62,708 bases of DNA from Escherichia phage PA16. Shown one piece after another: positions 39,001 through 42,000 of this stretch (within the stretch, counting starts at the first letter, position 1; each line of letters begins with the position of its first letter). Made by a program: the position numbers. The stretch lies in sequence record KP682377.1, one strand, 5' to 3'.

Positions 39001-42000
39001 GGGGACCGAAAGTACGGTGACGCTCAATATGCTGTTACGCCGCAGTCTTGTTGAGGTTAGCATACCCGGAGAACTGCTGACAGATTTCCGGCAGATACAG
39101 AATAATGTGGCTGATGACCTTGCCACTATTCGTCGCCTGAATGAAGACACGGCGACAAAAAACACTCAGGCCACACAGTCAAAAGAAAGTGCAGCAGCCA
39201 GTGCGAAGAGTGCATCTGACAGTGCAAAGACGGCAACCAGCAGGGCGGCTGAAGCCGGACAAAAAGCGACTGATGCCACTGAGGCTGCGACCCGTGCAGT
39301 CACAGCAGCGGGGAATGCAGAGGAAAGCTCGACCCGTGCCGGAGAGTCTGAAAAAGCCGCCGGAGCTGATGCAGAAAAAGCCAGACAGCATGCTGAAAAG
39401 GCCAGGCTGGCGCAGGAGAGCGCCGGAGAGATCCTTAAGCGGGCAGAGGCTGCCACTGTCAGTGCTGAAGAGGCCAGACGTATGGCTGAGAATGCACGGG
39501 GGCCCCGGGGGCCTCAGGGAGAAACTGGTCCGAAGGGGGATGTCGGTCCTAAAGGCGAAACAGGTCCAGTGGGCCCTCAAGGGCCCGCAGGGCCGAAAGG
39601 TGAGCGTGGTGACGTTGGTGCTCAGGGGGCTGTAGGGCCTGCTGGTCCGCGTGGTGAGAAGGGCGAACAGGGGGAGCGAGGACCGCAGGGAATACCAGGC
39701 CTGAAGGGGGATACCGGAGAGCGGGGGCCTAAAGGGGACCAGGGGGATATGGGGCCAAAAGGCGAGAAAGGTGATCCGGGAGGTCCTGCAGGCCCGCAAG
39801 GTCCTAAAGGCGAACGAGGAGAAGCCGGACCACAGGGACCGATGGGAGCACGAGGTGAGCGTGGGGAGACTGGCCCCCGAGGTGAACCTGGTCCTGCAGG
39901 TCCGAGAGGCGAACGAGGAGAGACCGGACCTCAGGGACCTCGTGGAGAGCCAGGTCCGGCAGGCAGCGCTGCAAATGTGGCTGATGCAACGACGGCACAG
40001 AAGGGAATTGTGCAGTTAAGCAGCGCAACGGACAGTGATGATGAAACGAAGGCTGCCACCCCGAAAGCGGTGAAAGCGGCAATGGATGTGGCAAATGAAG
40101 CGAAAACAAAGGCAGAAGAGGCTGCAGCAGGAGGTGGTGTTCCCGGTCCGAAAGGAGATAAAGGGGACACGGGGCCAGCAGGTCCGGCTGGGCCGAAGGG
40201 TGATAAGGGAGAGCGCGGTGACACCGGCCCTGTCGGGGCAACCGGCGAACGGGGACCGGCAGGTGATGCTGGTCCGGCAGGCCCGCAGGGGCCGAAAGGT
40301 GACAGGGGAGAGCGGGGAGAGACCGGTCTGACGGGAAATGCAGGTCCACAGGGTCCAAAGGGAGATACCGGTGCGGCAGGCCCGGCAGGCCCACAGGGAC
40401 CGAAAGGAGAAACAGGTGCGGCAGGCCCGGTGGGGGCGACCGGACCTCAGGGGCCGAAGGGCGACCCGGGGGAGACGCAAATACGGTTCCGTCTGGGGCC
40501 GGGAAACATTATTGAGACAAACAGCCATGGCTGGTTCCCGGATACAGATGGCGCACTCATCACCGGACTGACCTTTCTTGACCCCAAAGATGCCACACGG
40601 GTTCAGGGTTTTTTTCAGCATTTGCAGGTCAGGTTTGGTGACGGGCCGTGGCAGGATGTCAAGGGGCTGGATGAAGTGGGCAGTGATACAGGCAGAACAG
40701 GAGAATGACATGAATATTTTGAGAAAGCTTATGCAGAGTCTGTGCGGTTGCGGAAAGCATGATGACTGTGAAAACGGGCAGTCGCTTACAGCACAACTGC
40801 GACTGGGACCGGCAGACATTCTGGAGTCAGATGAGAATGGCATTATTCCGGAGCAGGACAGGGTAATCACACAGGTGGTGATACTGGATGCAGATAAAAA
40901 GCAGATACAGTGTGTGGTAAGACCGCTGCAAATCCTGCGTGCTGACGGGACGTGGGAAAATATTGGCGGGATGAAATAGCCGACAGCTTCACAAAAACCG
41001 GAGCCCGGCTCCGGTTTTTGTTGTCATGTATAGGGGGGGGTTATTAGAGAGTGAAGTAATAAACATGTTAATACGATGGAGTGAAGGATGCCGTGTAATT
41101 CTGGTTCAAGAGTTTTTTATGCCGGAAAATCGCAGGATTATTCTGGATAGTAAAGAATCCTGGTTAATAATCTGTGATAGTCAGTTGGGCCATTTAATGC
41201 GCAGTATGTATCAGGGACGCCGTTTTATTCAGCTGAATCTGGAAAAATTGAAAGGGGTACATGATGTCGCCTTGCCAGTGAAATGGGAATTCACACGAAG
41301 ACAGTGAATAGCTTTCTGTATACGGGAATGGCGAAAAATGGACTGTATGGTGTGAGTGTGAAACATCTTGCGTGTGCGGAGTGATGCTTCTCGTTGCTAC
41401 AGCGGCAATGATAATGCAGTGAAAAAAGGGGAGCAATATGCTCCCCCAAACCGAAAGAAAATTGCAATAATCAATGAAGTTATTTAGTCATCATCAGAAT
41501 GTCATGCAAGGCATTTTGTTTCAGTGATGCCGATCGCGATTTTAGCGAATTCCATCATAAATCCCCTGATTTTTAAGCCTGAAGCAGTCAAAGGAATTTC
41601 TATGCCCTATATCGATATCACCACGATGCGTGGGATGATGCCGCGCGTTGTGACATCCATGCTGCCCGAGCATTCCGCTGTACTGGCGGAGGACTGCCAT
41701 TTCCGGTTTGGTGTTATTACACCAGAACGTCAGATATCCGGGGTTGAGAAAACATTCACAATTAAGCCAAAAACAATTTTTCATTACCGTGACGATTTCT
41801 GGTTTGCATGGCCGGATGTGGTGGATGTGATCCGCAGTCCGATCGCTCAGGACCCCCACGGGCGTATTTACTACACTGACGGGCGTTTTCCTAAAGTGAC
41901 GGATGCGACTATTGCCACAAAAGGGGACGGGAATCACCCGACATCATCGTATCGTCTGGGGATCCCCGCGCCGACGACAGCTCCTGTCTGTACTGTTCAG

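Follow-up and report, generated by a model that had tools for sequence, protein, structure and literature searches.

Simple-sequence contingency loci, in which homopolymers bring about phase variation, are known from Neisseria, Haemophilus and Campylobacter, and from the fim promoters of Bordetella. Two further kinds of described system resemble parts of the DNA considered here: the cargo (moron or effector) loci of lambdoid prophages in enterohaemorrhagic and enteropathogenic Escherichia coli (EHEC and EPEC), and the Hfq-binding small RNAs (sRNAs) of EHEC prophages (AsxR, AgvB, StxS, HnrS, EcOnc). I analysed a stretch of 62,708 nucleotides from Escherichia phage PA16 (record KP682377.1, hereafter the window), in which an earlier note had described an AT-rich, moron-like insert in the tail region, with a run of eight G residues, an open reading frame (ORF) of about 80 amino acids and a hairpin. 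The most probable reading of the segment at ∼40980–41560 is that a cargo locus has decayed there, on the right-hand border of the tail-fibre module in a Shiga toxin 2 (Stx2) prophage of the 933W/Sp5 type, with a neutral G-run and a hairpin that belongs to a separate unit.

With contingency loci, the window shares a poly-G tract of 7–10 nucleotides (nt), recurrent change of its length, and a tract-dependent frame of the upstream ATG. It differs from them in having neither an intact gene nor a functional promoter or ribosome-binding site in register, in tract lengths that are stable within lineages, and in that the tract arose only after the gene had been truncated. With the lambdoid cargo loci it has in common the site after a Phage_fiber_C gene, a low GC content, bounding terminators and the tolerance of insertion sequences (IS); however, it contains no intact gene, no predicted promoter of its own and no effector, and the site lies within the genome of a short-tailed member of the Sepvirinae instead of closing the tail operon of a siphovirus. 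The hairpin unit resembles the EHEC prophage sRNAs in its U-tail terminator, in an intergenic region recovered with Hfq, and in reads from cross-linking, ligation and sequencing of hybrids (CLASH), but has no Rfam family or EcOnc name, and is found at the tail-fibre junction rather than at the PR′ moron site.

The remnant gene and its intact relatives

The window represents an Stx2 prophage of the 933W/Sp5 type. Sp5 of E. coli O157:H7 Sakai (NC_002695.2, 1246154–1308861) has the same length, 62,708 bp, and identity to it is complete across the 8 kb compared, while positions 40950–41560 are 100% identical in 933W, VT2-Sakai, Min27 and the PA-series Stx2 phages. Intact copies of the gene that has decayed here, encoding a regulator of ∼157–180 amino acids, were found in other E. 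coli prophages. Loci L016 and L017 have an intact copy directly 3′ of the Phage_fiber_C gene, followed by nleG, a type III secretion system (T3SS) effector gene, and loci L018 and L019 have one at a prophage end; such placement is classical for cargo in lambdoid prophages. E2348/69 carries the effector gene nleA at the same post-Phage_fiber_C site, and another decayed copy of the regulator, annotated as pseudogene pieces.

Alignment with these loci identified three deletions in the window, of 174, 112 and 140 nt. The first, relative to L016, is between the direct repeats GAAGGATGCC and AAAGGATGCC, with its junction within 41083–41092; it took the native ATG and the first ∼21 codons, and joined the ATG at 41065 in frame to codon ∼22. 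In L016 this ATG opens only a nine-codon upstream ORF (ATGTTAATACGATGGAGTGAAGGATGCCTTTAA), and in the same alignment the rest of the old leader, including ATG 41065, corresponds to 41041–41083 (plus strand). Surviving regulator codons ∼22–82, from the N-terminal, receiver-like half, occupy 41084–41267 (plus strand), as placed by the alignments and by matches to phrog_2014 and phrog_6585. The second deletion, also relative to L016, has its junction at ∼41267/41268, introduced a frameshift, and cost the DNA-binding half its first helices. The 3′ part of the regulator, with the last helices of the helix-turn-helix (HTH), continues out of frame at 41268–41384 (plus strand), where a 33-residue ORF is present at 41283–41384 (MGIHTKTVNSFLYTGMAKNGLYGVSVKHLACAE); this part is near-identical to the C-terminus of P0003/L018. 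The third deletion, relative to L018, has its junction at 41377/41378, and took the regulator stop codon together with most of a 43-residue hydrophobic small ORF. The 3′ stub of this ORF remains at 41378–41422 (plus strand), and the ORF is intact in L018, GER2, POCJ13 and phi296.

The protein-level searches give the same picture. The 80-residue ORF (41065–41307, plus strand) matches phrog_2014 end to end (E 1.9e-58), and also the middle of phrog_6585, a profile of 156 positions. When the 33-residue ORF is conceptually fused to it, the E-value for phrog_6585 falls from 1.7e-29 to 6.5e-45, and a search with the fused frame leads to intact E. coli and Citrobacter proteins of 141–181 amino acids, to which the window aligns without the N-terminal ∼21 residues and without an internal block of 37 residues. 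A profile search had been proposed for this ORF, described as unrecognised: no functional name was obtained from Pfam, NCBIfam or PHROGs, for the remnant or for its intact homologues, but the ORF is recognisable as what is left of a gene known in intact form. Its start is called differently in different annotations, giving 93 residues from 41026 (933W L0123), 80 residues (phrog_2014) or 62 residues from 41119 (ECs_1230 in the Prokaryotic Genome Annotation Pipeline). An ORF of the described size therefore exists, but the G-run is upstream of it only in the shorter readings; in the 93-residue one (41026–41307) it is inside, at codons 3–5.

Compared with the closest intact gene, P0001, the remnant shows nine nonsynonymous and two synonymous differences over 184 nt (counted by hand in the DNA alignment), two of them at positions otherwise conserved; this pattern is consistent with relaxed constraint. 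In one IMG/VR contig (L007, 3772–6470), a 2.7-kb IS with an 8-bp target duplication has inserted within the remnant ORF, at window position 41103–41110. As judged from these alignments, the "80-residue ORF" is best regarded as a chimeric pseudogene fragment and not as a gene. The residues LLESEV upstream of M41065 were considered as a homologue of the intact N-terminal YLEYGL, which the DNA alignment refuted, as they correspond to old leader fused by the deletion. On the minus strand, an 80-residue ORF at 41194–41436 has no family match.

The ancestral locus would accordingly be pictured as a small orphan transcription regulator of ∼157–180 amino acids, receiver-like in its N-terminal half and with an HTH resembling that of LuxR, followed by the 43-residue hydrophobic ORF. 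The three deletions, in the phage lineage of the window, would have destroyed both, and the 174-nt deletion between short repeats would have fused the nine-codon leader ORF to the gene body by chance, creating the frame at 41065–41307.

The intact proteins form a small family. When 1.84 billion representative proteins were searched with a profile, only 34 clusters were recovered, all within the regulator family and mostly fragments, with no link to the very large LuxR family. Pfam gave no match for five of six intact homologues, and for the sixth a Sigma70_r4_2 match (E 6.8e-4) below the cut-off; GerE and Response_reg were absent from all six. Of five PDB profile matches, the top four are GerE/LuxR proteins, aligned on the HTH, at non-significant E-values of 0.43–1, and the best NCBIfam hint, to EvgA, is likewise non-significant (E 0.14). 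A low-confidence AlphaFold2 model of an intact homologue (predicted local distance difference test score, pLDDT, 62) has a beta-alpha N-terminal half followed by four helices, and a Foldseek search with this model returned NarL/FixJ-family regulators for 21 of the 22 top matches, all with E ≥ 0.013 and template modelling (TM) scores of 0.27–0.42. These three independent hints, none of them significant, are suggestive of a compact NarL/FixJ-like protein with a LuxR-type HTH. Since all are non-significant, I state a likeness to the NarL/FixJ class and do not assign membership. With regulators of this class (EvgA, RcsB, GerE, EtrA) the intact homologues share the predicted receiver-like and four-helix halves, but they are ∼40 residues shorter than true members and have no significant domain match. 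Two other identities were rejected: PsrA and PsrB belong to the AraC/XylS family (PMC10877973), and RgdR, which carries DUF4222 and an RGD motif, is of a different family.

Positions 41026–41460 have a GC content of 42.5%, compared with 49.9% on average for the window (standard deviation 4.7%, 435-nt windows), which places them at the 5th percentile; the AT-richness reported for this segment is genuine but modest. As in a moron, extra DNA of different base composition is present between genes that are adjacent in relatives, but there is no intact ORF equipped with a promoter of its own and, on the same strand, a terminator downstream. The description as moron-like is accurate in that this is cargo-type DNA, with the intact regulator and nleG or nleA at the same position elsewhere; it does not extend to the gene itself, which is a remnant of three deletions without a promoter of its own.

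Origin and length variation of the G-run

The G8 homopolymer (41033–41040, plus strand) lies in what was once the 5′ leader of the regulator, a gene now dead, and is polymorphic in length. It is at the position given for it in the earlier note, and is the longest homopolymer of the 62.7-kb window, as well as the sole run of eight or more of any base. A single G8 is within chance expectation for the window: 1.73 are expected on both strands together, and 74 of 100 dinucleotide shuffles contain at least one. The sole other G-run of seven or more in the window is a G7 at 42943–42949, within a gene for a 541-residue virion protein.

In the undeleted loci (L016, L017 and E2348/69), the position homologous to the G-run reads GGGGATATTTG and is ∼170 nt 5′ of the native start, and the site was therefore leader, non-coding originally. 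I searched with a chimeric query, joining G8 to the undeleted leader. It was covered in full by 115 records, all at ≤95.7% identity and of the GGGGATATTTG type, while every record with a G-run ends its match at the deletion junction. The homopolymer is therefore confined to loci in which the gene was already dead, and co-occurs solely with the first, 174-nt deletion.

The comparison of tract length across isolates that the earlier note had called for shows that the tract is not invariant, and lengths of G7, G8, G9, G9C and G10C were found. In 13 IMG/VR contigs, G8 is present seven times, G7 four times, and G9C and G10C once each. Among complete E. coli genomes, 366 records match the region, and the band of ≥99% identity contains 164 records for the G8 query, 61 for the G7 query and 19 for the G9 query, with a few partial matches in each count. 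At least nine E. coli records have 10-nt tracts, and the two inspected are G9C. An apparent G6 tract proved on inspection to be G7 in an error-ridden contig.

Four flanking haplotypes have two tract lengths apiece, a result taken from a narrower span, as one IS-bearing locus dominated the alignment of haplotypes with wide flanks. Over 40 kb, Z1815 and Z1816 differ in nothing but the tract, G8 in one and G7 in the other, and G9C and G10C are tied to a separate haplotype of 26–27 single-nucleotide polymorphisms (SNPs). Within lineages, the length is constant. EDL933 has G8 both in the 933W phage record (AF125520) and in the chromosome assembly (NZ_CP008957), and Sakai also has G8; TW14359, EC4115, SS17 and SS52 have G7, as do all O121:H19 genomes among the records listed; and in one Centers for Disease Control and Prevention (CDC) series, all 11 of 11 genomes have G9. 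Because the length is constant within independently sequenced lineages, most of the variation must be real and heritable rather than error, and because it differs on at least four haplotype backgrounds, the site is a genuine slippage hot spot, as had been suspected from the tract alone. Change of the tract is too slow to blur consensus assemblies. In the orphaned leader the G-run is mutationally unstable through replication slippage, and its length has changed repeatedly. Other short homopolymers nearby vary too: an A-run at window position 40993, in an arm of the upstream terminator, is A5 or A4 by haplotype, and a C7 at ∼4790 of L018 has AAATCCCC as its window counterpart.

The reading frame from the ATG at 41026 depends on the tract. 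G8 and G10C keep an ORF of 93 or 94 residues open, and G6, G7, G9 and G9C lead to a stop after 6–9 codons. This ATG, the sole start that is tract-dependent, has no Shine-Dalgarno sequence and is in the U-tail of a strong bidirectional intrinsic terminator (A5-stem-loop-stem-U5; 40991–41021, both strands), while two further in-frame ATGs (41065 and 41119) are downstream of the tract. The terminator follows the Phage_fiber_C gene, and was absent from the earlier note. It has a 14-bp stem (−21.7 kcal/mol, z −5.3), its end is separated from the G-run by 12 nt, and its sequence is identical in the undeleted locus L016. The sole promoter-like pair at the tract is TTGTCA (41021–41026) and TATTAG (41042–41047), with a 15-nt spacer at G8; TATTAG is without the conserved final T, and the pair fails the promoter scan. 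No sigma-70-like promoter spanning the tract was found in the window scan or in the intact locus, and none is predicted upstream of the remnant ORF, the only promoter-like match being within it (41144–41171).

Alternative explanations

Other readings of the locus were considered. It is unlikely that the ORF is an intact and functional small moron gene of 80–93 residues without characterised relatives. Such a gene would account for the end-to-end match to phrog_2014, for the annotation as hypothetical protein in most Stx phage records, and for the lower GC, as in many morons; but the phrog_2014 match is the remnant merely clustered with itself, the same residues align in the middle of relatives of 157–180 amino acids, and the parts that are missing have been deleted or put out of frame. 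An own promoter is not predicted, the downstream terminator is on the opposite strand, an IS is tolerated inside the ORF, and the excess of nonsynonymous differences from P0001, two of them at conserved positions, does not suggest a gene under constraint. As for the tract, I consider it very unlikely that its length differences are artefacts of sequencing or assembly, and that the true tract is invariant. Errors in homopolymers are frequent on 454, Ion Torrent, PacBio continuous long read and Nanopore platforms, the AR-0430 "plasmid" contig (L028) has many 1-nt homopolymer deletions and frameshifted genes, and Z1815 and Z1816, both long-read assemblies, differ by a single base. However, the same lengths recur within lineages across laboratories and platforms (EDL933, the TW14359 group, O121:H19 and the CDC series), and G9C and G10C accompany their own distinct haplotype.

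The earlier note had further proposed that the tract switches expression on and off. That the G-run is a true contingency tract, its slippage toggling the frame of the 93-residue ORF or the spacing of a weak promoter and so turning a truncated receiver-like protein on and off, in the lysogen or during infection, is highly improbable. The tract is at least ∼7 nt of G/C, and differs in length recurrently among close relatives; in-frame lengths (G8, G10C) and out-of-frame lengths are both common in nature, and TTGTCA, immediately upstream, matches five of six positions of the −35 consensus when read by eye. Nevertheless, it is not in the 5′ coding region, or in the −35/−10 spacer, of an intact functional gene. 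The gene downstream is without its DNA-binding domain and native start, the ATG at 41026 is poorly placed for translation, within a terminator tail and lacking a Shine-Dalgarno sequence, and the ATGs at 41065 and 41119 would bypass the switch. With an imperfect TATTAG, a 15-nt spacer and a negative scan, promoter spacing fares no better, and the tract is restricted to the deleted lineage and has stable lengths within strain lineages (G8 in EDL933 and Sakai; G7 in TW14359, EC4115 and the O121:H19 records listed). The switch is therefore unsupported, as three deletions have destroyed the gene whose orphaned leader holds the tract. A more specific version, in which a young functional contingency tract (G8 and G11 ON; G7, G9 and G10 OFF) switches translation, from ATG 41026, of a receiver-like fragment of 93 residues that is dominant-negative to intact paralogues on co-resident prophages, appears still more remote; if true, Stx2 lysogens would gain heritable and reversible heterogeneity in prophage-controlled virulence regulation. 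Returning to the decayed locus with a neutral tract, since nothing intact is present downstream, changes of the tract are most likely selectively neutral and without a switching role. Several observations weigh against this, in addition to the error-ridden L028 and the single-base difference between Z1815 and Z1816, which suggest that some length differences may be errors of assembly. In formal terms, a frame that depends on the tract is what a translational phase switch would show, and the commonest length, G8, keeps the frame open; more than 150 phage records have the remnant ORF with 100% conservation, although these are near-clonal phages; and a truncated receiver-like domain might conceivably still act. 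Directly observed are the homology, the three deletions, the length polymorphism of the tract, its tie to the deletion, and the conservation of the hairpin; the neutrality of the tract is inferred, as are the ends and the function of the minus-strand RNA described below.

The hairpin and a candidate minus-strand RNA

The hairpin, GGGGAGCA-ATA-TGCTCCCC followed by U6, is an intrinsic terminator of the minus strand (41421–41447), with its stem at 41428–41446. The earlier note was correct in that the hairpin is real, with its U-run on the minus strand, but gave 41437–41455 as its position, ∼9 nt too far to the right, and misread the ATA loop. Its folding energy is −15.0 kcal/mol on the plus strand and −16.8 kcal/mol on the minus strand (z −3.5 to −4.0 over both, and −3.5 for the minus strand), and the T/U run of six nucleotides (41422–41427) is 3′ of the stem on the minus strand only.

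The region from the stop of the small ORF, through the hairpin, to the start of the gene for the 541-residue protein is ∼83% conserved in the Sepvirinae relatives POCJ13, phi296 and GER2. The modules that these phages carry here differ from those of the window (in tail fibre, adhesin and Cor), and only the segment from the hairpin to the next gene is common to them and the window. It is also conserved, to ∼41560, in L018, an unrelated E. coli prophage end. In five of five divergent loci the stem is invariant, the minus-strand T-run is present, and a −10-like TAAAAT/TATAAT is found at 41544–41539 (minus strand). From this conservation, the hairpin is not the terminator of the moron, but part of a separate conserved unit, in which the junction segment at 41448–41544 (minus strand) is the candidate body of an unnamed minus-strand RNA.

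The hairpin would most likely terminate a short minus-strand RNA, running leftward from ∼41530, and bound by Hfq and RNase E in lysogens. In a published Hfq data set obtained by cross-linking and analysis of cDNA (CRAC), ECs1231...ECs1232 ranks 27th for reads among intergenic regions, in all five samples (Tree et al., 2014; PMC4104026, Table S1B), with all its reads in one strand column. By the Sakai annotation, this region is within ∼41468–41601 of the window. The supplement of Waters et al. (2017; PMC5286369) includes two RNase E CLASH hybrid reads with AAATGCCTTGCATGACATTCTGATGATGACTAAAT, one of them joined to the core sRNA MgrR. This sequence is the window minus strand 41516–41482, and both reads start at ∼41516. 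Because the CLASH reads are minus-strand, I infer the same strand for the Hfq signal. A candidate pairing with MgrR, of AUGCCUUGCAUG with CCAUGCAAGCAU, is proposed.

Four points count against such an RNA. The strand of the CRAC reads is unstated for intergenic features in PMC4104026; the CLASH support amounts to two reads only; a −35 element was not found, and the promoter scan for the RNA was negative; and covariation over five sequences, in about three lineages with an invariant terminator stem, is uninformative, with an unfavourable term of +1.44. Taken together, the balance tips slightly towards a minus-strand RNA of ∼95–115 nt that would end at the hairpin and U6.

No Rfam family reaches the gathering threshold in 40900–41700, where sub-threshold matches are terminator-driven noise only; the EcOnc names have no entry at the site of the hairpin and RNA; and a literature search by locus tag found nothing in main texts. 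Two published names were considered and rejected. Of the Pas sRNAs, A, C and D are near Q, the holin gene and the PR′ region, and nothing ties PasB to the site; HnrS corresponds to EcOnc10–12, in Sp9, Sp10 and Sp12.

A hydrophobic small ORF of 43–60 residues, intact in relatives, is directly before the conserved hairpin (L018 4521–4652, MMNKDKYRMYEGKRYIAGAMCFMLFVWLGGVVALVATAAVIMQ; L024 1419–1565; L025 1352–1534). A small membrane peptide convergent with a minus-strand RNA recalls, by analogy, the layout of type I toxin-antitoxin systems.

Surrounding genes and other features of the window

To the left of the locus are a collagen-repeat tail fibre gene (38771–40708) and the small Phage_fiber_C gene (40710–40979; L0122 in 933W, ECs1229 in Sakai), and to the right the gene for the 541-residue virion protein, which starts at 41602. 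The tail fibre gene encodes long collagen-like Gly-X-Y repeats in window 39300–40500 (Pfam Collagen, E 4e-43), and this part reaches a GC content of 66–70%, with strong purine skew, far above the 50% found elsewhere in the phage. The C-terminus of the tail fibre (residues 571–634) is also a Phage_fiber_C domain, and ECs1229/L0122 (89 amino acids) is a free-standing one (PF06820, E 5e-36), suggestive of a spare tip for the fibre or an alternative one. Other prophages also have this pair of genes upstream of their cargo locus. IS1203 has inserted in the 5′ end of the gene for the 541-residue protein in two bovine O157 strains from the UK, Z1815 and Z1816 (L022/L023, 20649–21862).

Elsewhere in the window, Rfam matches at gathering level were obtained at 22269–22528, 17165–17363, 59416–59590, 62212–62300, 25208–25324 and 7898–7956. 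The families matched are STnc100 and the convergent AsxR after stx2B; isrK, with the C4 antisense RNA and its targets; the sok antitoxin RNA beside a Hok gene; sRNA-Xcc1; the ALIL pseudoknot of an IS3-family element; and the lambda cIII thermoregulator. Three tRNAs are present at 20612–20860.

Implications

The locus adds an example to two known kinds of thing, cargo genes that decay in prophages and hypermutable homopolymers that are most likely neutral, and is largely ordinary. It also illustrates that a striking homopolymer beside an ORF is insufficient for calling phase variation. The "hypothetical protein" L0123 of 933W, ECs1230 of Sakai, has been copied into hundreds of Stx-phage records, and can be corrected to a pseudogene fragment. 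As a marker, the G-run evolves fast and tells apart Stx2 prophages that are identical in other respects, and it may aid fine-scale outbreak typing, although errors in homopolymers make it a pitfall as well.

A conserved minus-strand RNA of the Stx phages, bound by Hfq and so far without a name, is probably what the hairpin marks. Finally, the intact relatives of the remnant bring to light a small and uncharacterised family of prophage cargo regulators, found beside T3SS effector genes in EHEC and EPEC, and often decayed.

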